A stretch of DNA of 64,000 bases from Candidatus Omnitrophota bacterium (lineage in GTDB: Bacteria > Omnitrophota > Omnitrophia > Omnitrophales > JACROU01), in NCBI GenBank assembly GCA_029261035.1, contig JAJDCD010000025.1, forward strand, positions 130,926 to 194,925, written 5' to 3'. The position numbers and the translations under genes are program-made. Under the pieces are notes generated by a model. The model worked only from the letters and a program-made list of their open reading frames with translations, was not told the origin of the DNA and did no database searches. Of this stretch, positions 2,049-63,022 are shown one piece after another; positions within the stretch are counted from its first letter, which is position 1; each line of letters begins with the position of its first letter.

Positions 2049-3167
2049 TCACAATAAGTATAACAGTCGATCTATATCTTTCTCATTATTGTAAAAGTGT
2101 GGGGCTACGCGTAAACCACCGCCTCTTGGAATGGAAAATATTTTTTCTTTAAATAAAGTTATAGCAGCTTTTTCTGGGTCAGACACTTTAAGAATCACAA
2201 TACCTGAACGATACTCTGGTTCTATGGGTGACAAAGCAGGGATGTTCTTCTTTTGAGCTTGCTCAATGAGATAGTCGGTGAGAAAAAGAATGCGTTCTTG
2301 AATCTCTTTTTTTCCAATAGAATCAAAATAAGAACAGGCGGCACCTAAACTAAAATAGCTTGGAAATGAAGGGCCTCCATATTCAAATCGCGAACAATTA
2401 GGATTCAAAACCGTATTCTTATTATCATATCGATCCGGATCATCCACGCTACGCCATCCAGCAAAAGATGGTTTTTTGCTTTCCAAAAGTCCTTTTCGAA
2501 TATACAAAACACCCCCTCCATAACCAGCCATCATCCACTTATAACTATTCCCCGTCATGCAATCAACGCCCATTGCTTTAACATCGATTGGGAAAGCCCC
2601 TAAAGCTTGAGAGCAGTTAACCACAAAATGTGCTTCCCGTTCTTTGGCTATTTCTGAAAGAGCTTTTAGGTCTTGTCTAAAACCTGTAGCGTATTGAACA
2701 TAACTGGAAAGAATCGTTTTAATCGAAGAGCTCCACTTCTCTTTAAAAAGTTTAGGAAGCGTTTTATTGTCTTCAGAAGATAAAAAATGCACCTTTTCCG
2801 TTTGATGAAGCCAAGGCACTGTTGAAGCGGGAAATTCCATATCGCTCATCATAACTTCCCCATCACTTTTTAGAAGATCGACAATTAAATTCATCCCCTC
2901 AGAAGTACTATGCACAAAAGCAACTTCCTCAGGGTCTGCATTGATGAATTGAGCTACATTCCTTCGAGCTTCTTCTTTGCGCTCGAGCCACTCATCCCAA
3001 ACAAAATCTCCTTGATTCAAAGACTCCTGCCAATACCCAGAAGCCGCCTCAAAAGCAGGACGAGACACTAACCCTCCAGCAGCATGATCCAAATAAACAT
3101 AATCTTTCACACTAGGAAAATCCTCTTGTCTTAATTTACCCCAATCAATCATAATACCTCCCCTCAA
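2049..3167 (-). CDS. Class V aminotransferase / cysteine desulfurase-like PLP enzyme
   Basis: 372 aa with a PLP-fold region SSYVQYATGF...CSQALGAFPIDVKAMGVDCMTGNSYKWMMAGYGGGVLYIRKG. The track start at 3167 is TTG. An ATG at 3152 (MIDWGKL) preceded by gaggggagg is the more likely start. Confidence 0.7.
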   Translation of the reverse strand: MRGGIMIDWGKLRQEDFPSVKDYVYLDHAAGGLVSRPAFEAASGYWQESLNQGDFVWDEWLERKEEARRNVAQFINADPEEVAFVHSTSEGMNLIVDLLKSDGEVMMSDMEFPASTVPWLHQTEKVHFLSSEDNKTLPKLFKEKWSSSIKTILSSYVQYATGFRQDLKALSEIAKEREAHFVVNCSQALGAFPIDVKAMGVDCMTGNSYKWMMAGYGGGVLYIRKGLLESKKPSFAGWRSVDDPDRYDNKNTVLNPNCSRFEYGGPSFPSYFSLGAACSYFDSIGKKEIQERILFLTDYLIEQAQKKNIPALSPIEPEYRSGIVILKVSDPEKAAITLFKEKIFSIPRGGGLRVAPHFYNNEKDIDRLLYLL

Positions 3168-3192
3168 AAAGCATCGTCACACATGTGACGAT
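3163..3192 (-). terminator. Palindrome atcgtcacacatgtgacgat plus U-run (minus-strand terminator/attenuator-like)
   Basis: On the minus strand the 9-bp stem is followed by gcuuuuu. It lies directly 5' of the aminotransferase RBS and 3' of the SpoU gene. A paralogous palindrome sits at 62683-62704. Confidence 0.4.
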
Positions 3193-3204
3193 ACAATATA
3201 CCTA

Positions 3205-3237
3205 GGCAAAATAAGTGCTCGATGCACTTCTTTTGCC
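3205..3237. repeat. R2 hairpin repeat (ggcaaaatAAGTGCtcgatGCACTTcttttgcc)
   Basis: 14-bp stem with 1 mismatch and a 5-nt loop. The core aaaataagtgctcgatgcactt is also at 9189-9225 and 62823-62860, and degenerate at 27339-27368. Confidence 0.75.
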
Positions 3238-3279
3238 AACCTCTCAACACTCACACTAATTTTATACCTCACAGAAAAA

Positions 3280-3352
3280 GATTGTTTTCCCGCCGCGAGT
3301 TCACAAAAATCGTATTGTATTTTTGTGCTGTCTGAGCGCCGGGAATACAATC
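3280..3352. repeat. R3 structured repeat (outer stem + GCGAGTTcacaaaa-loop-ttttgtgcTGTCTGAGC)
   Basis: gattgttttcccgccGCGAGTTcacaaaa atcgtattgtattt ttttgtgcTGTCTGAGCgccgggaatacaatc. Paralogues at 9258-9336, 27421-27492 and 62899-63000 have different loops and compensatory outer stems. Confidence 0.75.
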
Positions 3353-3375
3353 TTTTCCGACCCACCTACCTAAAA

Positions 3376-8671: not shown

Positions 8672-9175
8672 ATGAAACATTTAATACTCTCTTTTTTAAT
8701 TCTATGTTCGCTCGTCTTAGGAATCCCTTCTCTTCATTCCGAGGTTCCTCTTACCGTCAAATCCAAGAGCCCTGCTCCCCCATCCGAGTTTGTTGTTGAA
8801 GCCATTATTGACGTGAATATTTTAAAAAGCGCTGCAGGCCCTTCCATTCGAATGCTGGGAGTTGAAGCCACTCGCAATATTGAAGCTAAAAGAAAGGGGA
8901 TGGAATATTTAGAAACAAATATAAAGGGGAAAACATTCACATTAGAATATGACAAAAAAACGAAAGACCCTATGGGAAGGTTTTTAGCTTACGTCTATTT
9001 CGAAGATGGAAACATGCTAAACGAAGAAGTTCTCTGGAGAGGTTACGGATACGCTTCCAAAAAGTATCCCTGCAAATACATCTACAAATTCCGCCGCTAC
9101 GAAAACGACGCCAAAAGAAAAAACCACGGCCTCTGGAAAAAACTAACCAAACCAGGTGAGACAAAAGACAAATAA
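8672..9175 (+). CDS. Secreted thermonuclease (SNase-like) family protein
   Basis: Signal peptide, then SNase-fold motifs ...IRMLGVEA...GRFLAYVYFEDGNMLNEEVLWRGYGYA. Confidence 0.65.
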   Translation: MKHLILSFLILCSLVLGIPSLHSEVPLTVKSKSPAPPSEFVVEAIIDVNILKSAAGPSIRMLGVEATRNIEAKRKGMEYLETNIKGKTFTLEYDKKTKDPMGRFLAYVYFEDGNMLNEEVLWRGYGYASKKYPCKYIYKFRRYENDAKRKNHGLWKKLTKPGETKDK

Positions 9176-9188
9176 CACGTCTTTACCC

Positions 9189-9225
9189 ATAATAAAATAA
9201 GTGCTCGATGCACTTCTTTTATTAT
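9189..9225. repeat. R2 hairpin repeat copy
   Basis: ataataaaatAAGTGCtcgatGCACTTcttttattat. Same core as 3205-3237 with a different, compensating outer stem. Confidence 0.7.
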
Positions 9226-9257
9226 CTCCCTTCTCCCCACCCAAGTCTACACAAACA

Positions 9258-9336
9258 AGAAAAAGGGAATGCCTCCACTGCGAGTTGCGGAGGCCTTTGG
9301 CCGAGCATGTCTGAGCAGTGGAGGCATTCCCTTTTT
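9258..9336. terminator. R3 repeat copy acting as a bidirectional intrinsic terminator
   Basis: Perfect 22-bp outer stem gaaaaagggaatgcctccactg/cagtggaggcattccctttttc encloses GCGAGTT...TGTCTGAGC. T-runs flank it on both strands, between convergent genes 8672-9175 (+) and 9375-10559 (-). Confidence 0.65.
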
Positions 9337-9374
9337 CGCCACAACTTATAATCTTTTCTACTCACCTTAACAAA

Positions 9375-22774: not shown

Positions 22775-23977
22775 TTAGTAGAACAGAGCAATACTTGCTG
22801 TAAATCCATGTAAAAAATTCTTATCCCCTATCGGGCCTATTTCTCCGGCACAAAAAAAACCTGAAATTGGAAAATCTCCAAGCTGCTCATGAAGTAATGT
22901 TACATCATGGTTCTTCTCGTCAAACATATGTTTTCCCCGGCCATTACAATTAAAAATAAGTCCTGCTTTAGGAGGCGTGAATTTACTAGAGTTCACTTCT
23001 TCTTTTTTTTGGTCCAGACATAAAGTTTCCAGGTCTTCATGAGCCGATTGGGAGTCTCGCACATGAAACTGTACTGTATTTCCAATATTTACATAGTCAG
23101 AAACAGATAACGCTCCTGAATTACGATCTAACCCAACAACATTACGAATCACAAAGTCCCCTGTTTCTGGGTTTTGCTTTAACTCATCAACAAGAGAACC
23201 AATAAAAAGCGCTTGTCTTGCTAAAACCTGATCTCTCGCAGAAGCTTTTCTATAATTCTCCTCCAAAAATTGAAGAGCTGTCTTCCCTGCCAAATTATGA
23301 ATAACATTTTCCTGGCACTCCGTAATAACAGCAGGCTCACCAAAAGGTCTACACCCTTGAGACACCAATGGTTTCACTTTAACATTACCAGACAAAACAA
23401 CGCCAACAGCACCTTCACTGCAGATGCCTTCAGACCAAAACAACACATTCTCACCCGGTTCTGTCGCAGCACTTGCCATCCCACCCACCATAGGGGCTCC
23501 CGGAAAGGCATGTTCAATGGATTCAATGAATAAGTTCATATTAAAACTAAATGGGTCAGGCAAAATGAAAAAAGTAGGATTCTCCTCAGAAGAAACCCCA
23601 AAAAATGCTTGGCACTTTTCTTTATCTTTCATTTGCTCTAGGTCAGAAGGTTTAATCCAAAAAGGAATTTTTTTAACATCTGGAAGTTTTGCTAAAAATA
23701 ACGAAATTGCAGAATCAGAGTCTAGCTCTTCATTAGTACCGATGACGTTCAAAGCACTACAGCCCATCAGAACATCAATATCAATTTCTTTTCGAAGTAA
23801 ATCCACTACTTCAAAATACTGGTCTTTAAATGCGGAAGTTACAAAAAGACAGGCTAAGTCTACCTTGTTGTCTGAAAAGCTCCTTAAAGCTTCTTGAGTA
23901 ACCTGTTTAATAAGTTCTGGAAGCTGCTCCCCTTTAGCTACAGCGGAACCAAATTGAGACTGATTATGCTGTTCCAT
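22775..23977 (-). CDS. FIST-domain sensory protein
   Basis: 400 aa. The C-terminus GFFCAGEIGPIG is the FIST_C signature. The N-terminal half fits FIST_N. Confidence 0.55.
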   Translation of the reverse strand: MEQHNQSQFGSAVAKGEQLPELIKQVTQEALRSFSDNKVDLACLFVTSAFKDQYFEVVDLLRKEIDIDVLMGCSALNVIGTNEELDSDSAISLFLAKLPDVKKIPFWIKPSDLEQMKDKEKCQAFFGVSSEENPTFFILPDPFSFNMNLFIESIEHAFPGAPMVGGMASAATEPGENVLFWSEGICSEGAVGVVLSGNVKVKPLVSQGCRPFGEPAVITECQENVIHNLAGKTALQFLEENYRKASARDQVLARQALFIGSLVDELKQNPETGDFVIRNVVGLDRNSGALSVSDYVNIGNTVQFHVRDSQSAHEDLETLCLDQKKEEVNSSKFTPPKAGLIFNCNGRGKHMFDEKNHDVTLLHEQLGDFPISGFFCAGEIGPIGDKNFLHGFTASIALFY

Positions 23978-23998: not shown

Positions 23999-24562
23999 TT
24001 ATTCGTTAACCTGAACCACTTCTTTAATTTCAGGAATCAATTCTTTCAACCGACGTTCTACCCCCATTTTCAATGTCATAATAGAACTTGGACAAGAGCT
24101 ACAAGCCCCTCTAAGGTGAAGCGTCACAACACCCTCTTCATATCCGCAAAAAACAATATCTCCTCCATCCATAGCAACAGCAGGTCGGATTTCTCTGTCT
24201 AAAATTTCAACAATTTGTTGCTCCACACTCCCCTGAACCGACTGGGTATTAACTTGAATTTTTGTAGAAATAATTTCTTTTTCAGAAGTTAAAATTTCTT
24301 TAAGCTTGTCTGCAACAACAGACAGCAAATCTCCCCACTCTGCCTCTTCAAGCTTTGTAACCGTAATAAAATTAGTCCCTATCATTACGCCAGACACATT
24401 CTTAATCTCAAACAAAGTTTCTGGAAGTAAAGACCCTTGAGCAACTTCTTTCGTAGGAAAATCAGCAACCCCATTTTCAAGCACAGGTTGATTGACATTG
24501 AATTTAATGGTATTTGGATTCGGTGTAATTTCAGCAGTCAACACGACTTCTTTAGAACTCAT
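23999..24562 (-). CDS. NFU-type Fe-S cluster assembly protein (Nfu_N + NifU C-domain)
   Basis: C-terminal NifU motif LRGACSSCPSSIMTLKMGVE with CxxC. Confidence 0.7.
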   Translation of the reverse strand: MSSKEVVLTAEITPNPNTIKFNVNQPVLENGVADFPTKEVAQGSLLPETLFEIKNVSGVMIGTNFITVTKLEEAEWGDLLSVVADKLKEILTSEKEIISTKIQVNTQSVQGSVEQQIVEILDREIRPAVAMDGGDIVFCGYEEGVVTLHLRGACSSCPSSIMTLKMGVERRLKELIPEIKEVVQVNE

Positions 24563-24641: not shown

Positions 24642-25952
24642 TTAAATCAAAAGATTTCGGAATAAAACAGCAAAACCAAGGAAAGCGAAAAATCCCATAA
24701 CATCCGTAATGGTCGTTAGTATGATATTAGAACATTGCGCAGGGTCTAGGCCAAGCCCTTTCATACTTAACGGAATTGCAGCTCCGGCTAAACCTGCTAC
24801 CACCAAATTAACAATCATAGCCAGACCAATCACCATTCCAAAGAAAGGATTTCCTACCCAAACCCAGGCGACACCCGCAGTCACCAAACCAATAATCAAA
24901 CCATTAACAGCCCCTATCCAAGCTTCTTTAAGAATCAAAGCTAAAGCACGGTTCGATGGAATCTCTCGCATTACAAGTCCTCGCATTACCACAGCTAAAG
25001 ACTGAGCCCCTGCATTCCCACCTTGCCCCGCAACAACAGGAAGAAATACAGCTAAAACAGTAATTTGCGCAATAATACCTTCGAACAAAGCTACGACGGA
25101 TGCAGCAAGAAACGCGGACAACAAATTTAAATGAAGCCAAGGCAATCTTTTCTTCAGCGAAAACCCCACAGTAGAAAAAGCACGTTCGTCACCACCCGCA
25201 CCAAACATCTTTTGAATATCTTCCGTTGCCTCTTCTTGTACATCTCCAATTAATTGTTCAGCCTTAACAACCCCAAGTAAATGATTTTCATTATCAATAA
25301 CGGGAGCCGCAAAGAAACGGCGTTTAGATAACTCTTCAGCCACTTGCTCTCTATCCATAAATGAGTTAACAGAAAAAATATCTTTACGCGTAATCTCAAC
25401 TAGCTTCGCTTCTCCAGAAGCCAACATCAAATCTCTCATATTCATCACACCAACAAGATGGTTCTCTTCGTCAACCACATAAGCATAAGATGCAGGAGCT
25501 TTTCTACGCGCCAAAACTCTAATTTTTCTAATCACATCCTTAACCCGAGTTTCAGAATAGAAAGCCAAAAAGTCCGTAGTCATAATTCGACCCGCACTGT
25601 CCTCTGGATAAGTTAAATATTCTCTAATTCTATTTTTTAATCTCTCAGGCAAAATAGCTAAAAAACTCTCTCTTTTTTCATTAGGTAAATCAAGAAAGAT
25701 AGCAGCACCTTTTTGAGGGTCTAAATGATCTAAAATATGGGCAAACAACTCCGGAGAAACATCTTCTAATAAACTGGCAACCAAGTTAACCTGCATATGC
25801 GCCAAAGCTTGGGAAGTTAAGTGAGGAGGTAAACCTTTAATAACAGTGACAGCATCATCTTCGGGCAACGTTTCCAAAACATGGACAGCCGACATCAAAT
25901 CTTCTTCAAAATATTTTTCAACTAAGGGCATTAAGGATGCTGGTGTCGACAT
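24642..25952 (-). CDS. mgtE: Magnesium transporter MgtE
   Basis: MgtE_N, then a CBS pair, then the C-terminal 5-TM MgtE domain. Confidence 0.85.
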   Translation of the reverse strand: MSTPASLMPLVEKYFEEDLMSAVHVLETLPEDDAVTVIKGLPPHLTSQALAHMQVNLVASLLEDVSPELFAHILDHLDPQKGAAIFLDLPNEKRESFLAILPERLKNRIREYLTYPEDSAGRIMTTDFLAFYSETRVKDVIRKIRVLARRKAPASYAYVVDEENHLVGVMNMRDLMLASGEAKLVEITRKDIFSVNSFMDREQVAEELSKRRFFAAPVIDNENHLLGVVKAEQLIGDVQEEATEDIQKMFGAGGDERAFSTVGFSLKKRLPWLHLNLLSAFLAASVVALFEGIIAQITVLAVFLPVVAGQGGNAGAQSLAVVMRGLVMREIPSNRALALILKEAWIGAVNGLIIGLVTAGVAWVWVGNPFFGMVIGLAMIVNLVVAGLAGAAIPLSMKGLGLDPAQCSNIILTTITDVMGFFAFLGFAVLFRNLLI

Positions 25953-25972: not shown

Positions 25973-27154
25973 TTATTCTTCTTTGATATCTATTTCAACA
26001 TTAATTCTTCTAGGCTCCACGTTTTCCAAAACAACTTTTTTGTTCGAAAAAGTAACGTCTGAATTTGAAATAAACACACTTTGTTTTTCTTTTCTTACGT
26101 CTAATGTTCTTAGAATTAGGTGGATCGTATTCGCATTAGCAAAATAAAACGACCTTCTAGGTCCGGAAAAGCTAACCTCTACGACTTCAGGGTCTGTTTT
26201 TACCTCAGTAACACTTTTAGGTAATTTAGCGTATTCTACAGGAATTTCGTAGGTTTTATAAACTAATTTAGACCCATCTACTAAAACAAACCATAAAGCT
26301 AAGGACATAACTAATGCAATGACCTTTTCTCTATAGTTTTTCTTAAAGAAATGCTGCCATGGCTTCTTTTCTTCTTCTGGAGCAATCACCTTGTAGAATT
26401 TCTCTAGAAGACGGCTTAAAGCATTCGCATCTTCTATTTCCTTAATCTCCGCTTTATTAGCATAGGATATACTCCCTCTCTCTTCCGAAACGATCAAACA
26501 CAAAGCATCTGAGAGCTCTGACAAACCTAAAGCAGCAGCATGTCGTGTTCCTGACTGGCCCAATTTCTTCATATTCTTAGACAAAGGCAAATGAGACCCA
26601 ATTTGAGAAATTCGATTCTTTTCAACAATCACAGCACCATCATGTCCTGCAGAATGCGGATCGAAAATACTCTTTAAAATAGGCTCACTCAACTTCCCAT
26701 CAAGCTCAACACCACCTTCTAAATGTCTCAAGATTAAATCTTTGCCTCGGATAACAATTAAAGCCCCAATACTCTCACGAGACAAATCCATAATTGTCCT
26801 CACAAGAACTTCTGTTTCAGGTCTTGTAATTCGCTCCCGCCCTCTTATCTTGAGCCTTCGCTTCAATCCAAAAAGTGCAATCTGTTCAAAGAAATGCCTT
26901 AACTCTTCCTGAAAAATAACCACAAGTGCTATTAAAAAAACAGCAAAAAAACCTTCAAAAATAGTAGATGTGAGATACAGATTAAACTGTCTGGACAATA
27001 AATAAATGAGAGCAACAATAAATATCCCCGTCAACACAAACGCTGCTTTAGTCTTCTTAAACCACACAAGAATACTATAAACAACCAGCGTCATAAAAAG
27101 AATATCAATCAACCCCGACACACCCATTTCCTTCAAAAAACTCAACACACCCAT
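25973..27154 (-). CDS. cdaA: Diadenylate cyclase CdaA with a C-terminal TM + YbbR-like extension
   Basis: 3 N-terminal TM helices. DAC motifs GALIVI, DGAVIV and GTRHAAALGLSELSDALCLIVSEERGSISYA. An extra ~125 aa follows (TM VIALVMSLALWFVLV plus a beta-rich YbbR-like region). Confidence 0.8.
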   Translation of the reverse strand: MGVLSFLKEMGVSGLIDILFMTLVVYSILVWFKKTKAAFVLTGIFIVALIYLLSRQFNLYLTSTIFEGFFAVFLIALVVIFQEELRHFFEQIALFGLKRRLKIRGRERITRPETEVLVRTIMDLSRESIGALIVIRGKDLILRHLEGGVELDGKLSEPILKSIFDPHSAGHDGAVIVEKNRISQIGSHLPLSKNMKKLGQSGTRHAAALGLSELSDALCLIVSEERGSISYANKAEIKEIEDANALSRLLEKFYKVIAPEEEKKPWQHFFKKNYREKVIALVMSLALWFVLVDGSKLVYKTYEIPVEYAKLPKSVTEVKTDPEVVEVSFSGPRRSFYFANANTIHLILRTLDVRKEKQSVFISNSDVTFSNKKVVLENVEPRRINVEIDIKEE

Positions 27155-27304
27155 AACACACCCTCAATCTATAGCCATTAGCCATTAACTTCAACCGCCA
27201 GAAGCGGTCCGCTATCTTTACAGCGGATTCTAAATCCTAAACAAACACATCACCATAAACAACGCCTTCATCCCCAACCTAATCAAACCGCTAACAACAA
27301 AACG

Positions 27305-27333
27305 CGTTTCGTTATGAATACCATAACGAAACA
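27305..27333. repeat. R5 hairpin repeat (gtttcgttatN-loop-NataacgaaaC)
   Basis: Perfect 11-bp stem gtttcgttatg/cataacgaaac. A paralogue with the same stem and a different loop is at 62787-62814. Confidence 0.65.
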
Positions 27334-27338
27334 CCTTA

Positions 27339-27368
27339 AACCCCAGAAACAATATGGGCTCGATGCCA
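27339..27368. repeat. Degenerate R2 copy
   Basis: aaatatgggctcgatgccatcttgttt versus R2 core aaataagtgctcgatgcacttctttt. Confidence 0.45.
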
Positions 27369-27420
27369 TCTTGTTTCAACCCCTAACACACTATCAAGCG
27401 TTCAGAACTTAAAGGAAAAT

Positions 27421-27492
27421 AAAATGTTCCCGCCGCGAGTTCACAAAAATCGTTCCTCAATTTTTGTGCTGTCTGAGCGCCGGGAACATTTT
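27421..27492. repeat. R3 structured repeat copy
   Basis: aaaatgttcccgccGCGAGTTcacaaaa atcgttcctcaattt ttgtgcTGTCTGAGCgccgggaacatttt. Perfect 12-bp outer stem with compensatory changes relative to copy 3280-3352. Confidence 0.75.
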
Positions 27493-27524
27493 ATTTTCCT
27501 CTCACCCACATCCACGCTCCAAAC

Positions 27525-28589
27525 CTAACCCCTAAACGGATAAACCCACTTTACCTTCAAAGGAATCCTAACCCTCCTCATAAACCTCTGCACCAACTCT
27601 TTCTCCACCTTAATCCAAAATGCCTCATCCCTATTCTTCCCAATCTTAAAACTCCCCCCTCCAATACTCCCATGCCCCCCCGCATCTCCTCGATCATCAA
27701 AAATATCTCTCAACACTTCACCTGCTTGAGCATTAGGAGTTGAAGTTCTCAACGAAACATGAAGTTTCCCATTATATCTTCCCGTAGTTAAAGACCAACG
27801 GATTCCTTTGTACGTAAGCAGAAAATCAGCAATTTGAGAAACAAGATCTGGATTCTTAACGTCACCCAAATGAGAAAAAATAAGGCTTCGACATTTTACA
27901 GCTGTCTGAATTCCTTTTCCCAAACTAACAAAAAAACTGCGTGAAAGAGCCGATGGATTTTGAATACGTGCCAAAGCCCTCAAATCGCAATAAGGAAGTA
28001 TGTCTAAATAAACACGAATTACTTTCGGATGTTTTGCTCGATATAAATTTAATGTATCCGAAATAATCCCATATGCAAGAGCCGTTGCAATCCGCACTGG
28101 AATTTCTTTACCTAAGATTAATAACGCTTGCGCCAATATAACCGATGTCGCTCCACAGTCAGGATCCACAATGCTCAAATCAGCATTTGGCTTCTCTTCC
28201 GAAGGGTGTTGATCTAGAACTATTCTAGAACGTCTGCTTTTGGGAAATGGATTGTTTTTAAAATTAGGCTGGGTATCTACGAGGGCCACATTAGAATATT
28301 TCTTAAAATCATTTTTCCTTAACTTGTGTACTGGAATTTTAAGCGTATGGACTAATTCTTTATTTTCAACTCTCCCTATAATGCCTCCATAAACCATTTT
28401 AGACGGAACCCCATAATTACTCTCTACAATATGTTGCAAAGCAAAAGCACTCGCAATGGCATCTGGATCTGGAAAATCGTGCATCAAAATTAAAAGCGGA
28501 TTGATATCCTCTTTTTTTTCTTTTAAAAAAGACAATAGCTTCTCTGCATTTAGCTGAATATGATCTGGTTTTATTTTCATCTTCTTCAT
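27525..28589 (-). CDS. DHH-family phosphoesterase (NrnA-like; possible pApA/c-di-AMP phosphodiesterase)
   Basis: N-terminal DHH region LILMHDFPDPDAIASAFAL and a DHHA1-like GGHGSIGGGS. It lies immediately upstream of cdaA. Confidence 0.6.
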   Translation of the reverse strand: MKKMKIKPDHIQLNAEKLLSFLKEKKEDINPLLILMHDFPDPDAIASAFALQHIVESNYGVPSKMVYGGIIGRVENKELVHTLKIPVHKLRKNDFKKYSNVALVDTQPNFKNNPFPKSRRSRIVLDQHPSEEKPNADLSIVDPDCGATSVILAQALLILGKEIPVRIATALAYGIISDTLNLYRAKHPKVIRVYLDILPYCDLRALARIQNPSALSRSFFVSLGKGIQTAVKCRSLIFSHLGDVKNPDLVSQIADFLLTYKGIRWSLTTGRYNGKLHVSLRTSTPNAQAGEVLRDIFDDRGDAGGHGSIGGGSFKIGKNRDEAFWIKVEKELVQRFMRRVRIPLKVKWVYPFRG

Positions 28590-28725: not shown

Positions 28726-30060
28726 TCAACGTAAATTCTCTTCAACTAGCAACTTTTCTAAATACTCTCTAAGCTTCGCGCTATCATGTCGAACAAGATC
28801 CGTTTCATGGCCAATATCAGAAACAATTACTTTAGCTTTTGTAACTTTTTGAATTTTTTCCTTATCTTTACCATTAATAAGATTTTGGCCTTTTTTGGCA
28901 TATTCCTGAATCGCTTTTCCAGAGACCTTGCTATTAGACAAAATTACATAATCCAAACAGTCAGCCTGAAGATATTTAATTATTTCTGCAATATGATCCG
29001 AGGCATCAAAGTTGGTTGTTTCACCAGGCTTTGTCATTAAATTACAAACATAAATTTTCTTTGCCTTAGATTGTTGAATCGCTTCCTTAACACCCCCAAC
29101 CGTTAAATTAGAAATAACGCTCGTAAACAAATCTCCAGGGCCCACAACGAGCAAGTCCGCATTGATAATTGATGAATAAACATCCATGGTACAATTTACT
29201 TTTGGCTCATGCCACGTATCTGCGATCTTTAAATTAGGATCCCTTCCATTCAGAATATCAATGTTCGTCTCCCCTTTAATGACAGAACCATCCTCAAAAC
29301 GAGCTGTTAAATCCGTTAATTGATCCGTAACAGGAAGTACGATCCCTTGAATATTCAGGATATCTCCCAACATCTTCACCGCACTTACCATCGATCCCGT
29401 AATATCGTTAAGTGCCGCTAAAAACAAATTACCAAAGCTATGTTCTGCTAAATCTCCACCTTTATTAAATCGATACTGAATAATTTGATTCATCACTTCT
29501 GGGGCATTTGATAAAGCAACTAAACTTCGTCGAATATCTCCCGGAGGTAAAATCCCCATAGACTCTCTTAATCTGCCAGAAGACCCCCCACTATCACTCA
29601 TAGTAACAATAGAAGTTAAAAGAACATTTGGAATTTTTTTAATCCCAATCAGCAGATTAAACAATCCTGTACCACCTCCAATACATGTGATTCGAGTCTT
29701 GCGGTTTATGACCGAACTTACATAAGCAATAAATTCTCTATGGTTAAAAGGTCGTTGGATAATATGACTACATCCTAACTCTTTAACTGTTAATATGTTT
29801 TCTACAGAAATACCAGAAGCCACAAATAAATATTGGCTCTTTGAACCAGCAATCTGTTTAATTAGCTCTGTTTTCTCTGTTAAATTCTCAATATTTTCCG
29901 CATCCCCATCAATGACAATGCAGTCCATACTTTGCTGTCTGATAAGCAATTCTATTTCATTAATCGTATTAGCCCAAAATATATTCACGTCCAATGGACT
30001 TAAAATATCATGAACTTCTTTTACAAATAAATTCTCTCCAAAAATGAGTATCTTTTTCAT
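28726..30060 (-). CDS. Receiver-domain fused to a YvcK/UPF0052 (CofD-like, GlmR-type) protein
   Basis: The first ~115 aa are a CheY-like receiver fold. The remainder has YvcK signatures CIGGGTGLFNLL and VTMSDSGGSSGRLR. Confidence 0.7.
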   Translation of the reverse strand: MKKILIFGENLFVKEVHDILSPLDVNIFWANTINEIELLIRQQSMDCIVIDGDAENIENLTEKTELIKQIAGSKSQYLFVASGISVENILTVKELGCSHIIQRPFNHREFIAYVSSVINRKTRITCIGGGTGLFNLLIGIKKIPNVLLTSIVTMSDSGGSSGRLRESMGILPPGDIRRSLVALSNAPEVMNQIIQYRFNKGGDLAEHSFGNLFLAALNDITGSMVSAVKMLGDILNIQGIVLPVTDQLTDLTARFEDGSVIKGETNIDILNGRDPNLKIADTWHEPKVNCTMDVYSSIINADLLVVGPGDLFTSVISNLTVGGVKEAIQQSKAKKIYVCNLMTKPGETTNFDASDHIAEIIKYLQADCLDYVILSNSKVSGKAIQEYAKKGQNLINGKDKEKIQKVTKAKVIVSDIGHETDLVRHDSAKLREYLEKLLVEENLR

Positions 30061-30105: not shown

Positions 30106-31224
30106 TTAAACAATTTGCTTACTTAAAAACTGAATAATTCTCTTTGAAGCTTTTCCATCCCCATACGGGTTAGGTTTTCCCTGAAGTTTTTTTGTTAACT
30201 CTGGATTATCCAAACATCTCTTAGTCTCTTTAAAAATACGTTCAGGCTCTTGCCCCACAATACGACTAAATCCTGCTTTCACACCCTCAGGTCGTTCTGT
30301 TACATTTCTAAGAACAAGAATGGGTTTATAAAATGACGGAGCTTCCTCTTGAATCCCACCAGAATCCGTTAAAATCAAATCGGAGTGTTGCATCATATAA
30401 ACCAAAGAATCATAAGCTACAGGCTCAATTAAATGGATATTAGGGGTATTCTTTAACATAACTTTAACTACTTTTTGAACGTTAGGGTTTAAATGGACTG
30501 GGTAATAAATGTCTATGTCTGGATAGAAACGTGCCACTTTTTGAATTCCTTGACACAGCTTCTTGAAAGGAGCACCAAAACTTTCTCTTCGATGCGCTGT
30601 CAGCAATATGTTTCTCTTATTTAAATCTAAATGAATGGGTGGTTTTTTTCTCTTCTTGAGAATTCTTTTCATTTCTATTAAAGCGTCAATTCCCGTATTT
30701 CCTGTCTTAACAATATTCTTTTTAGGCACACCCTCTTTAACAAGCCTCGAAAAAGCCAAAGAAGTAGGTGCAAAATGAAAATCAGCAACTTGGGTTATTA
30801 ACCGACGATTAATTTCTTCTGGAAAAGGCTCATATTTATCATCACTACGCAACCCGGCCTCGACATGTCCCACAGGAATTTTTAAATAAAAAGCAGATAA
30901 AGCGACCAAAAAAGCCGTTGAAGTGTCCCCTTGAACCAAAACACAATCTGGTTTTATTTTCTTTAACATGCGTTCCATGTTTTTTAAAATACGCTCACTT
31001 AAAGAAGATAGGGATTGGTTATGTGTCATTAATTTCAAGTTGTAATCCGCTTTTAAATTAAAAAGCTTCATCACTTGATTTGCCATGTGAATATGCTGCC
31101 CGGTCAAAAGAACAATAGGTTGAAGCTGCTTACTCTTTTTCATTTCGATTGCTAAGGGTGCCATTTTCAAAGACTCGGGTCTAGTTCCCCAACATAAAAG
31201 TATTTTCTTTTTAGATTTAGCCAC
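30106..31224 (-). CDS. wecB: UDP-N-acetylglucosamine 2-epimerase (non-hydrolysing)
   Basis: ILLCWGTRPE...QPIVLLTGQH...VQGDTSTAF...GHVEAGLRS. Confidence 0.85.
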   Translation of the reverse strand: MAKSKKKILLCWGTRPESLKMAPLAIEMKKSKQLQPIVLLTGQHIHMANQVMKLFNLKADYNLKLMTHNQSLSSLSERILKNMERMLKKIKPDCVLVQGDTSTAFLVALSAFYLKIPVGHVEAGLRSDDKYEPFPEEINRRLITQVADFHFAPTSLAFSRLVKEGVPKKNIVKTGNTGIDALIEMKRILKKRKKPPIHLDLNKRNILLTAHRRESFGAPFKKLCQGIQKVARFYPDIDIYYPVHLNPNVQKVVKVMLKNTPNIHLIEPVAYDSLVYMMQHSDLILTDSGGIQEEAPSFYKPILVLRNVTERPEGVKAGFSRIVGQEPERIFKETKRCLDNPELTKKLQGKPNPYGDGKASKRIIQFLSKQIV

Positions 31225-62704: not shown

Positions 62705-62786
62705 CCACCTGAATCCTAAACCAACTTATCTGCACAATTAGGCATTTATCCCTGCAATTCTATAATCTTCCTGTAAACAATTAAAT

Positions 62787-62814
62787 GTTTCGTTATTTAG
62801 ACCAATAACGAAAC
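62787..62814. repeat. R5 hairpin repeat copy
   Basis: gtttcgttatt-tagacc-aataacgaaac, same stem as 27305-27333. Confidence 0.65.
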
Positions 62815-62822
62815 TCATTACA

Positions 62823-62860
62823 CCCAGGCAAAATAAGTGCTCGATGCACTTATTTTGGCA
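62823..62860. repeat. R2 hairpin repeat copy
   Basis: cccaggcaaaatAAGTGCtcgatGCACTTattttggcaaccc. Confidence 0.7.
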
Positions 62861-62898
62861 ACCCTCCACACCCCCCACTTGTATTAAAACACTTCAGG

Positions 62899-63000
62899 AG
62901 GAGGAAGGAATATTCCCCGCCGCGAGTTCACAAAAGGGACAGTCCCCAATGGGGACAATCCCTTTTGTGCTGTCTGAGCGCTGGGGAATATTCCTTCCGA
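62899..63000. repeat. R3 structured repeat copy with an inserted inner hairpin
   Basis: Perfect 16-bp outer stem ggaaggaatattcccc/ggggaatattccttcc encloses GCGAGTTcacaaaa, an inner hairpin gggacagtcccc-aat-ggggacaatccc, and ttttgtgcTGTCTGAGC. Confidence 0.75.
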
Positions 63001-63022
63001 CGACGAGCCCTTCACAACAACT

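Follow-up and report, generated by a model that had tools for sequence, protein, structure and literature searches.

Reports on CdaR, the YbbR-domain regulator of the diadenylate cyclase CdaA, assign it opposite effects in different species. In Bacillus subtilis, mgtE lies away from cdaA, and an M-box riboswitch controls it. CdaR is extracellular and works through the transmembrane (TM) domain of CdaA (PMC8316131). B. subtilis MgtE is reported to bind c-di-AMP through its CBS pair (Gundlach et al. 2019; cited by PMC8844918 and PMC8316131), c-di-AMP and Mg2+ levels vary together (PMC8844918), and a Borrelia cdaA deletion mutant carried an mgtE missense mutation that its authors read as a likely suppressor (PMC8316131). 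The control of CdaA by CdaR and the cue perceived by YbbR domains are questions in c-di-AMP signalling on which the locus described here bears.

We analysed a 64-kb stretch of Candidatus Omnitrophota DNA (64,000 nucleotides; hereafter the window) in which a cdaA-like gene encoding a fused YbbR domain lies between a DHH/DHHA1 phosphoesterase gene and mgtE. The fused gene and its neighbours prove genuine, and form a moderately interesting variation on a system already described. A full-text literature search, whose coverage stopped short of the Galperin 2023 survey of DAC architectures, returned no description of a CdaA/YbbR fusion. The features discussed below are as follows, in window coordinates; the open reading frame boundaries given for the DHH gene and cdaA in a preliminary description of this DNA proved exact.

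24642..25952, minus strand: mgtE, Mg2+ channel, 436 aa, with MgtE_N, two CBS domains and the MgtE TM domain (Pfam); TIGR00400 291.2 bits (cut-off 232.75)
25973..27154, minus strand: cdaA-like gene, 393 aa, a 3TM-DAC-TM-YbbR fusion (ORF list and Pfam)
25985..26266, minus strand: single YbbR domain, residues ~297-390, predicted periplasmic (family profile, PF07949, AF2 and Foldseek)
26270..26326, minus strand: TM4, residues 277-295 (hydropathy 1.82; a helix in both AlphaFold models)
26447..26797, minus strand: DAC catalytic domain, residues 120-236 (PF02457, 116.5 bits), with DGA at 172-174 and RHA at 204-206
26900..27130, minus strand: N-terminal membrane module, residues 9-85 (PF19293 CdaA_N, 39.1 bits; cut-off 23.8)
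27300..27516, minus strand: copy of a dispersed structured repeat, ~210 nt, ending in a terminator-like hairpin (RNA fold z = -7.8)
27525..28589, minus strand: DHH/DHHA1 phosphoesterase of a divergent 'DQH' subfamily, 354 aa (PF01368 and PF02272 scores)

Architecture and distribution of the CdaA-like protein

The N-terminus of the cdaA product displays three hydropathy peaks that correspond to TM helices at residues 12-30, 35-53 and 63-81. Hydropathy taken together with the distribution of Lys and Arg residues fits an N-out, DAC-in topology: each of the four TM segments has positive charges on the side predicted to be cytoplasmic, and a basic cytoplasmic linker (6 K/R in residues 255-275) precedes TM4. 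Since the DAC domain is cytoplasmic and TM4 crosses the membrane, the tail that follows is predicted to be periplasmic. This tail is conserved over many phyla, with a mean column identity of 48%, and both W288, which lies in TM4, and P322 are invariant throughout the aligned family.

The preliminary description had likened the tail to the YbbR repeat of CdaR. Compared with Pfam by itself, the window's own tail failed to produce a YbbR match, even at E<=10, whereas 20 of 30 tails from the family matched PF07949 (best E 2.3e-7). A family profile searched against PDB sequences likewise recovered 5hqh, the Listeria CdaR (E 2.7e-4), together with 2l3u (E 0.018) and 2kq1 (E 0.14), both of which are YbbR-family chains. 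Both AlphaFold models place a seven-strand beta domain at ~297-390, and one of the two, an AF2 model confined to the tail domain, reached a pLDDT of 92.4. With the full-length model, the top 50 Foldseek matches were all DAC structures, and the YbbR comparison was thus made with the domain-only model. The leading matches of the latter were 2kxy (which we take to be a YbbR domain), 5hqh, 4qdy, 3lyw and 2kpu, the top four all being YbbR, with target TM-scores of 0.67 for 5hqh, 0.75 for 3lyw and 0.71 for 2kpu and modest E-values of 1e-3 to 1e-1; the related L25/TL5 fold ranked after the YbbR matches. Because the window's tail falls below Pfam thresholds, the YbbR call for this particular protein depends on the family profile and the predicted structure, and these profile and fold matches identify the tail as a TM helix followed by a true YbbR domain homologous to CdaR. 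Taken together, these findings make it very likely that the gene encodes a membrane CdaA-type diadenylate cyclase architecture with a fused YbbR domain.

A profile of the tail also retrieved fused relatives with two YbbR domains, which score 30-36 bits against a Pfam cut-off of 22.3, as well as standalone proteins in which a TM helix is followed by 2-5 YbbR stretches. The existence of these two forms suggests that a cdaA-cdaR pair has either fused or split. The 64-kb window contains no second YbbR-like open reading frame.

The fusion is no local oddity. We confirmed at least 531 loci in species-representative genomes from many Gram-negative phyla, and the fusion occurs in more than 1,000 protein clusters (1,151 clusters at 50% identity, E<=1e-10). 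Among the best 80 fusion loci, 78 align through residue 381 or beyond. Homologues of cdaA number more than 6,000, and the best 120 of these are nearly all full-length, at 49-63% identity. The fusion is the standard form of a large and widespread CdaA subfamily that is common in uncultured Gram-negative lineages.

Linkage of mgtE to cdaA

In the window, mgtE begins 20 nt downstream of cdaA. The association of the two genes is non-random in that the pairing recurs with different flanking genes, but it is a minority pattern: of the 65 species-level genomes with enough downstream sequence, only 4 have mgtE next after the fused cdaA. Across the loci examined, this arrangement was found at L001-L006, L025, L026, L032, L043 and L078. 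L001 is the closest relative of the window, and its whole ~13-kb block is syntenic with it, so the linkage at L001 is explained by shared ancestry.

The low frequency and the shared L001 block both favour the view that mgtE lies beside cdaA through local synteny only and encodes an ordinary Mg2+ channel free of c-di-AMP control in this organism, and we consider this a serious possibility, albeit short of even odds. It also accords with Rfam searches, in which nothing reached the gathering threshold over the whole window, nothing reached E<=1 in the 370-nt gap upstream of cdaA, and no c-di-AMP riboswitch or M-box was detected. Against local synteny stands the recurrence of the cdaA-mgtE pairing with unrelated flanks in five groups (Zixibacteria, Thermodesulfobacteriota, Bacteroidota, Nitrospiraceae and Elusimicrobia). 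So do six metagenome loci at which mgtE directly follows a DQH-type DHH gene with cdaA absent from that position. The published c-di-AMP-MgtE binding (PMC8844918) and the mgtE missense mutation of the cdaA deletion mutant (PMC8316131) also argue against it. On balance, the prospect that MgtE is a direct target of c-di-AMP is in our judgement nearly even.

The full order DHH-cdaA-mgtE recurs with unrelated flanks at L003, L004, L005 (Zixibacteria), L025, L026 (Bacteroidota) and L032 (Nitrospiraceae). Given this recurrence in several phyla, chance does not explain why the DHH gene and mgtE lie next to cdaA.

The DHH/DHHA1 protein and the interval preceding cdaA

The DHH protein scores 35.2 bits against PF01368 (cut-off 28.1) and 25.3 bits against PF02272 (DHHA1), just under the cut-off of 25.9. 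Its invariant residues are H37, D41, D43, D105, D126-Q127-H128, D178 and A303-G304-G305; H306 follows the last of these in most members of the family, giving an AGGH...GGS motif in the C-terminal half. Motif III reads DQH instead of DHH in all 35 aligned members, and in an alignment with NrnA, Q127 stands opposite the first His of DHH, a metal-ligand position. Further motifs invariant among the DQH-type proteins are GRxEN, R281 and R294-D295. On sequence, the protein is not assignable to NrnA, to c-di-AMP phosphodiesterases or to pyrophosphatases; it is no nearer to NrnA or cyclic-dinucleotide phosphodiesterases than to family II pyrophosphatases, and it belongs to a divergent subfamily. Since it is not assignable in this way, the candidate turnover role that the preliminary description gave it derives from its gene context.

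That context is distinctive. In 26 of 72 genomes a DHH gene immediately precedes the fused cdaA on the same strand, three further cases being weaker, and in the reverse comparison cdaA was the most common gene downstream of a DQH-type DHH gene (25 of 67 metagenome loci). All 19 of the complete cdaA copies found next to a DQH-type DHH gene carry the YbbR tail.

We considered whether the DHH protein might instead be a housekeeping enzyme, either a nanoRNase/pAp phosphatase or a pyrophosphatase, with its adjacency to cdaA reflecting loose synteny or at most the removal of PPi that the cyclase releases. Family II pyrophosphatases were indeed the best PDB profile matches (E 8e-8), ahead of NrnA (8iu7, 3e-6) and a cyclic-dinucleotide phosphodiesterase (5xsi, 5e-5), but the pyrophosphatase match is confined to residues 30-182, the shared N-terminal DHH domain, and the C-terminal half, with its AGGH motif, matches DHHA1 and not the DHHA2 of pyrophosphatases. 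The NCBIfam scores likewise fall far short of their cut-offs for both enzymes (22.6 versus 350 for NrnA; 37.2 versus 283 for the pyrophosphatase model NF003877). With respect to gene context, 42 of the 67 loci with this DHH type (~63%) lack cdaA downstream, and other neighbours, such as LemA-like genes and a small TPR-like gene, also recur; cdaA is nonetheless by far the most frequent neighbour from both sides, in many phyla, and start and stop codons of the DHH gene and cdaA overlap at some loci, by 4 nt in L003 and L004. The housekeeping reading draws further support from the 370 nt and the terminator-like hairpin that separate the two genes in the window. We regard it as unlikely overall, and give an even chance to the alternative that the DQH-type protein hydrolyses c-di-AMP and/or pApA.

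The preliminary description had placed the DHH gene immediately upstream of cdaA; the gene order is as it stated, but the intervening gap contains a terminator-like stem at 27304..27334. This stem belongs to the dispersed repeat, which is present in four copies in the window, the others being at 3165..3375, 9145..9351 and 62781..63015. Because a repeat with a terminator-like hairpin intervenes, the DHH gene and cdaA of the window probably belong to separate transcripts. The repeat itself is not part of the signalling module, although it separates the DHH gene from cdaA. It may be a MITE, but its hairpin arms covary strongly among the copies rather than being conserved. An integron attC site is unlikely, as the flanking genes are core genes and are syntenic in L001 without the element. 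We also rejected the gap as a c-di-AMP (ydaO) or M-box leader, given that it has no Rfam match and holds the dispersed repeat.

Farther upstream, genes for YvcK/GlmR and a UDP-GlcNAc 2-epimerase are syntenic in the closest relative (L001) only. Since their synteny is limited in this way, they were left out of the module.

Cyclase motifs, proposed mechanism and comparison with described systems

The DAC model superposes on solved CdaA/DacA structures with a Foldseek E-value of ~1e-16, a target TM-score of 0.88 and an rmsd of 1.4 A. The DGA motif (D172-G173-A174) is invariant in 40 family sequences, and the other DAC-domain residues that are invariant in the family are also kept in the window's protein. 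The position of the RHR motif is occupied by R204-H205-A206 (GTRHAAALG), again invariant in the family, compared to GTRHRAA in solved CdaA structures. Against TIGR00159, the NCBIfam CdaA equivalog, the protein scores 180.2 bits, slightly below the cut-off of 188.8; because of this score, we file the fused cdaA as a distinct CdaA-like subfamily and not as the equivalog.

Quite improbable, in our view, is a passive role, in which the fused YbbR domain would anchor or localise the protein in the periplasm instead of sensing a signal, or in which a DAC domain of the RHA type would be catalytically weak and the protein mainly a scaffold. In favour of such a role, YbbR domains, those of canonical CdaR included, have no known ligand, the fold resembles the non-enzymatic L25/TL5 beta-barrel, and the third RHR residue is Ala in every family member, while conversion of RHR to AAA, the triple mutant that was tested, abolishes the activity of a DisA-type DacA (PMC3328451). 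Against it, the DGA motif, R204, H205 and the remaining family-invariant DAC residues are kept, the DAC model closely matches active CdaA structures, tail conservation across many phyla argues for a specific interaction, and the amount of c-di-AMP changes on CdaR deletion in Listeria, B. subtilis and P. gingivalis (PMC9259658).

The best explanation overall, and one that we consider somewhat probable, is that the locus encodes a one-piece regulated cyclase with the DHH protein as its cognate hydrolase and MgtE as its effector. TM4 would return the chain across the membrane after the DAC domain and display one YbbR domain in the periplasm, where it may sense an envelope cue. The packing of TM4 on TM1-3 would then tune how DAC domains meet for catalysis, an effect that CdaR reportedly exerts by binding the TM region of CdaA. 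The upstream DQH-type DHH/DHHA1 protein would hydrolyse c-di-AMP and/or its product pApA, and the MgtE that is putatively co-transcribed in this lineage would respond to c-di-AMP via its CBS pair, tying the signal to Mg2+ uptake.

A bolder view, which we hold to be doubtful, is that DHH(DQH)-cdaA(YbbR)-mgtE constitutes a self-sufficient cassette for c-di-AMP/Mg2+ homeostasis in Gram-negatives, movable by horizontal transfer, with the DQH subfamily as its dedicated hydrolase and MgtE as its direct output. If so, the fused YbbR domain would let a one-component cyclase read a periplasmic cue without an intermediary, and the DQH subfamily might use Mg2+ rather than Mn2+.

Several consequences follow from the one-piece regulated cyclase. 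Because nature has joined the cyclase 1:1 to one YbbR domain, both stoichiometry and topology are fixed, and the protein would be simpler for structural and mutational work than two-protein systems. We know of no characterised c-di-AMP-degrading enzyme in the phyla with the DQH-type DHH-cdaA pairing, and the recurrence of this pairing nominates an enzyme subfamily as the candidate degrading arm. That both genes are linked to mgtE time and again provides independent comparative-genomic support for the idea, still thinly documented, that c-di-AMP governs Mg2+ uptake besides that of K+.

Compared with CdaA and the separate CdaR of Bacillus, Listeria and Staphylococcus, which are encoded in cdaA-cdaR-glmM operons, the protein shares the three-TM module and the cytoplasmic DAC domain. 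As in the Firmicute pair, a single-pass TM helix is followed by an extracytoplasmic YbbR region with the same predicted topology and orientation, and the TM-to-TM regulatory contact is presumably shared as well (PMC8316131). In contrast to the Firmicute system, in which CdaR acts in trans, cyclase and regulator form one polypeptide here. There is one YbbR domain instead of several, glmM is not adjacent, the motif reads RHA instead of RHR, and the TIGR00159 score is slightly under the cut-off.

The DHH protein resembles Borrelia DhhP, Streptococcus pneumoniae Pde2, mycobacterial CnpB/Rv2837c and MsPDE, Thermotoga maritima TmPDE and NrnA in being a soluble, standalone protein of ~350 aa with a DHH domain and a probable DHHA1 domain. 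It retains motifs I, II and IV and the GGH-type DHHA1 motif of this group, and its profile similarity to the group (the 8iu7 and 5xsi matches given above) is weak but significant. It departs from these enzymes in the DQH form of motif III, in its extra invariant motifs and in an NrnA score far below the cut-off, and its hydrolase function is a putative one. The window's MgtE belongs to the same family as B. subtilis MgtE and has the same domains (MgtE_N, CBS pair and MgtE TM), but its link to c-di-AMP is genomic, through its position next to cdaA, whereas that of the B. subtilis channel is biochemical, and no M-box was detected here.

Porphyromonas gingivalis offers a further parallel, being likewise Gram-negative, with a CdaA-type cyclase under the control of a YbbR/CdaR protein and a gene for a phosphodiesterase close to that for the cyclase (PMC9259658). 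There, however, cdaR is separate, at a distant locus, and the phosphodiesterase encoded near the cyclase belongs to the HD (PgpH) type and not to DHH (PMC9259658). Taken together, these comparisons leave current understanding in place and extend its Firmicute-centred model to uncultured Gram-negative lineages.

Gene layout and the C-terminal tail of the cyclase

In the module part of the window every gene is carried by the minus strand. The preliminary description had its coordinates and gene calls exactly right, and Pfam and NCBIfam agree with them:

27525..28589, minus strand: DHH/DHHA1 gene, 354 aa
25973..27154, minus strand: cdaA-like gene, 393 aa
24642..25952, minus strand: mgtE, 436 aa

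The DHH gene is separated from cdaA by 370 nt, and cdaA from mgtE by 20 nt. Pfam placed CdaA_N at residues 9-85 and DAC at residues 120-236 (116.5 bits) of the cyclase, the cdaA-like product, which scored 180.2 bits against TIGR00159 (CdaA; NCBIfam), slightly below the cut-off of 188.8. The DHH protein matched the Pfam DHH domain at 35.2 bits and DHHA1 at 25.3 bits, marginally below the 25.9 cut-off. MgtE matched TIGR00400 (mgtE; NCBIfam) at 291 bits and is composed of MgtE_N, 2 CBS stretches and the channel domain.

Residues ~250-393 of the cyclase lie beyond the extent of any classical CdaA. Since this tail alone returned zero Pfam matches, even at E<=10, the claim of a YbbR-like C-terminal extension required stronger tests. 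A homology search with the cyclase recovered >6,000 relatives; the best 120 were nearly all 385-466 aa long (query coverage 96-100%, identity 49-63%), and 7 homologues from the search bore a precomputed PF07949 (YbbR) match. Conservation of the tail is good in the family alignment, with a GPRRxFYF motif and a hydrophobic segment in which one Trp is invariant. Scanned singly, 20 of 30 orthologous tails contained PF07949 (best E 2.3e-7). When searched against all PDB sequences, the tail-family profile matched three chains of the YbbR family: 5hqh, which is Lmo2119, the CdaR of Listeria (E 2.7e-4); 2l3u, a YbbR domain from Desulfitobacterium (E 0.018); and 2kq1, which is BH0266 (E 0.14). The AlphaFold model built from the tail alignment (pLDDT 92.4) comprises a single long helix and a beta domain of seven strands. 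Its top Foldseek matches in the PDB were the YbbR domains 5hqh, 4qdy, 3lyw and 2kxy, the last of which we take to be such a domain; 2kpu and 2l3u ranked lower. Target TM-scores among the YbbR matches reached 0.75, and the next matches were ribosomal L25/TL5, whose fold is related to YbbR. Despite modest Foldseek E-values (1e-3 to 1e-1), the assignment of the tail as a YbbR domain is secure, because sequence profile, structure and family context agree.

Catalytic domain and spread of the fusion

The DAC model superposed on solved CdaA/DacA structures with E~1e-16 and an rmsd of 1.4 A (Foldseek), and the domain retains an intact DGA motif. A difference appears in the other signature motif, RHR, which in B. 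subtilis CdaA is R203-H-R (PMC8573169):

26537..26545, minus strand: RHA motif (GTRHAAALG), residues 204-206; RHR in solved CdaA

Whereas every solved CdaA structure has GTRHRAA, the window's cyclase has GTRHAAALG, and RHA stands in place of RHR in 40 of 40 aligned family members. Changing all three residues of RHR to AAA abolished activity of a DisA-type enzyme (PMC3328451). That RHA is invariant in so large and widespread a family points to a variant that functions, not to decay.

The CdaA-YbbR fusion is very common. Scanning one genome per species yielded 599 or more pattern matches and confirmed at least 531 of them as relatives, indicating that the preliminary description had overestimated how unusual the fusion is. 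The alignment reached residue 381 or further in 78 of the best 80 loci. By MAG label, the fusion occurs in Thermodesulfobacteriota, other 'Deltaproteobacteria', Verrucomicrobiota, Planctomycetota, Bacteroidota, Ignavibacteriota, Nitrospiraceae, Spirochaetia, Elusimicrobiota, Omnitrophota, Dadabacteria, KSB1 and Binatia. Against 1.84 billion cluster representatives, the tail profile matched 6,203 proteins at E<=1e-3, of which 1,151 reached E<=1e-10. The best matches include ~395-aa fusions resembling the window's cyclase, ~480-506-aa fusions with two YbbR domains above the Pfam YbbR threshold, and freestanding TM+YbbR proteins, each with between two and five YbbR stretches. Taken together, these forms indicate that the fusion is one point on a continuum of fusion and fission that also includes bona fide CdaR. 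Public domain annotation recognises the fusion in part. Our literature search found no paper on it; the scope of that search did not extend to the Galperin 2023 survey, the main one of DAC architectures (22 families, according to PMC12901056).

The DHH protein and the gene neighbourhood

The DHH protein belongs to a well populated subfamily, and most of its members that carry a name are Candidatus Omnitrophota MAGs. Motif I (H37, D41, D43), motif II (D105) and motif IV (D178) were invariant across 35 aligned members, the DHHA1 motif AGGH...GGS was present, and motif III reads DQH, not DHH, in 35/35:

28206..28214, minus strand: motif III, D126-Q127-H128

By alignment with NrnA, the Gln takes the place of a His that ligates the second metal in the active sites of family II pyrophosphatases and NrnA; these DQH-type proteins may represent a subfamily with altered metal chemistry. 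The subfamily profile matched family II pyrophosphatases at E 8e-8, over their N-terminal domain alone, NrnA at E 3e-6 and a mycobacterial cyclic-dinucleotide phosphodiesterase, 5xsi, at E 5e-5; it is about equally distant from these three characterised groups. The DHH protein scored far below the NrnA and PPase NCBIfam cut-offs, and its substrate cannot be assigned by sequence alone.

We examined the neighbourhood from both sides. Among 80 species-level cdaA loci, 72 had enough upstream sequence; in 26 of these the DQH-type gene was the next one upstream, in the same orientation, with 3 weaker cases besides. The gap is typically 28-70 nt, and is replaced by a 4-nt overlap in L003 and L004 (L-numbers denote loci of relatives). 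Among 80 metagenome DHH loci, 67 were scored for the immediate downstream gene; cdaA was by far the commonest (25/67), and all 19 complete cdaA copies downstream of DHH had the YbbR tail. The trio DHH-cdaA-mgtE recurs with quite different flanks in L003, L004, L005 (Zixibacteria), L025, L026 (Bacteroidota) and L032 (Nitrospiraceae). A cdaA-mgtE pair stands without the DHH gene in L006 (Thermodesulfobacteriota), L043 and L078. In 6 metagenome loci mgtE is the next gene downstream of DHH, cdaA being absent from between them; 2 of these loci have identical coordinates and may represent one organism. As pairings occur in all three combinations, the genes attract each other pairwise, which is hard to explain by inheritance of one ancestral arrangement.

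Where mgtE is not the downstream gene, the neighbours that recur downstream of cdaA in L006, L005, L003, L004 and several of L008-L087 include an MscS-type mechanosensitive channel and glycogen/trehalose enzymes (GlgE, alpha-amylase family, GH77, GH57, phosphorylase); these neighbours fit an osmotic-homeostasis theme. In the metagenome loci (L088-L167), a LemA-like gene and a second gene with a Gly-rich tail repeatedly come after the DHH gene, and a small (~150-aa) TPR-like gene repeatedly comes before it, the LemA-like and TPR-like labels coming from reading the sequence rather than from a database search. In the window, mgtE is followed by a NifU/Nfu-type Fe-S scaffold gene (23999..24562, minus strand) and a FIST sensor-domain gene (22775..23977, minus strand), syntenic only in L001 and L002. 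Directly upstream of the DHH gene is a YvcK/GlmR-type UDP-GlcNAc-binding protein (28726..30060, minus strand; TIGR01826, 320.9 bits), whose extra N-terminal ~120 aa weakly resemble a receiver domain (Response_reg 16.5 bits, E 0.009) and whose gene adjoins a UDP-GlcNAc 2-epimerase (30106..31224). Since the cell-wall precursor enzyme GlmM regulates CdaA in Firmicutes, this proximity is suggestive; its synteny is limited to the closest relative, L001.

The 370-nt gap, which far exceeds its counterparts in other loci, has a very stable fold (z = -7.8) and matched no known riboswitch or leader in Rfam. It holds one of four copies of a ~210-nt structured repeat in 64 kb:

3165..3375, minus strand: repeat copy
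9145..9351, minus strand: repeat copy, found by a covariance model from the other three (94 bits, E 9e-20)
27300..27516, minus strand: repeat copy in the DHH-cdaA gap
62781..63015, minus strand: repeat copy

All four lie on the gene strand and start 8-25 nt past the stop codon of a minus-strand gene. Each contains a long hairpin, whose outer arms vary between copies yet stay complementary around a conserved inner core (GGCGCUCAGACAGCACAAAA...UUUUGUGAACUCGCGGC), and a conserved second hairpin (AAGAAGUGCAUCGAGCACUUAUU); a terminator-like hairpin closes 3 of the 4. Covariation is strong: both sides changed in 25 of 49 pairs, and pairing held in 94% of cells, vs ~50% with partners slid. The repeat was not found in related loci and matched no Rfam family. 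It is unrelated to c-di-AMP signalling; its candidate identities are a 3'-end sRNA/terminator module and a REP/MITE-like element. In the window's organism it probably ends the DHH transcript, in which case cdaA-mgtE would be a separate unit.

Standing of the module and comparison with known systems

The preliminary description read synthesis, regulation, turnover and a plausible target as compacted into one c-di-AMP module. Its observation was correct and its interpretation right in outline; the tightness of the module was overestimated, given the 370-nt gap and the rarity of mgtE directly after cdaA, which was seen in only 4 of 65 genomes. The evidence is good for synthesis and for a sensor that regulates in cis. 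Gene context makes it reasonable to infer that the DHH protein carries out turnover and that MgtE is the c-di-AMP target, though with real caveats in both cases. A mechanism for the MgtE link is provided by the literature: B. subtilis MgtE is bound by c-di-AMP, and after osmotic shock the levels of c-di-AMP and Mg2+ drop together and recover together (PMC8844918); a Borrelia cdaA deletion mutant carried an mgtE missense mutation that its authors read as a likely suppressor (PMC8316131).

Hydropathy predicts four TM segments in the cyclase (12-30, 35-53, 63-81 and 277-295), with Lys/Arg clusters (KKTK after TM1, 9 K/R after TM3, 6 K/R directly before TM4) on the predicted cytoplasmic sides. Given a cytoplasmic DAC domain, TM4 must place the YbbR domain, as predicted, in the periplasm, matching the extracytoplasmic side on which the YbbR repeats of Firmicute CdaR reside (PMC8316131). 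Domain order and predicted topology together identify the cyclase as a CdaA to which a CdaR part with just one YbbR domain is joined in cis. As a version of a known system it is new, or has at least not been studied before; it should be useful to specialists, though it is not startling.
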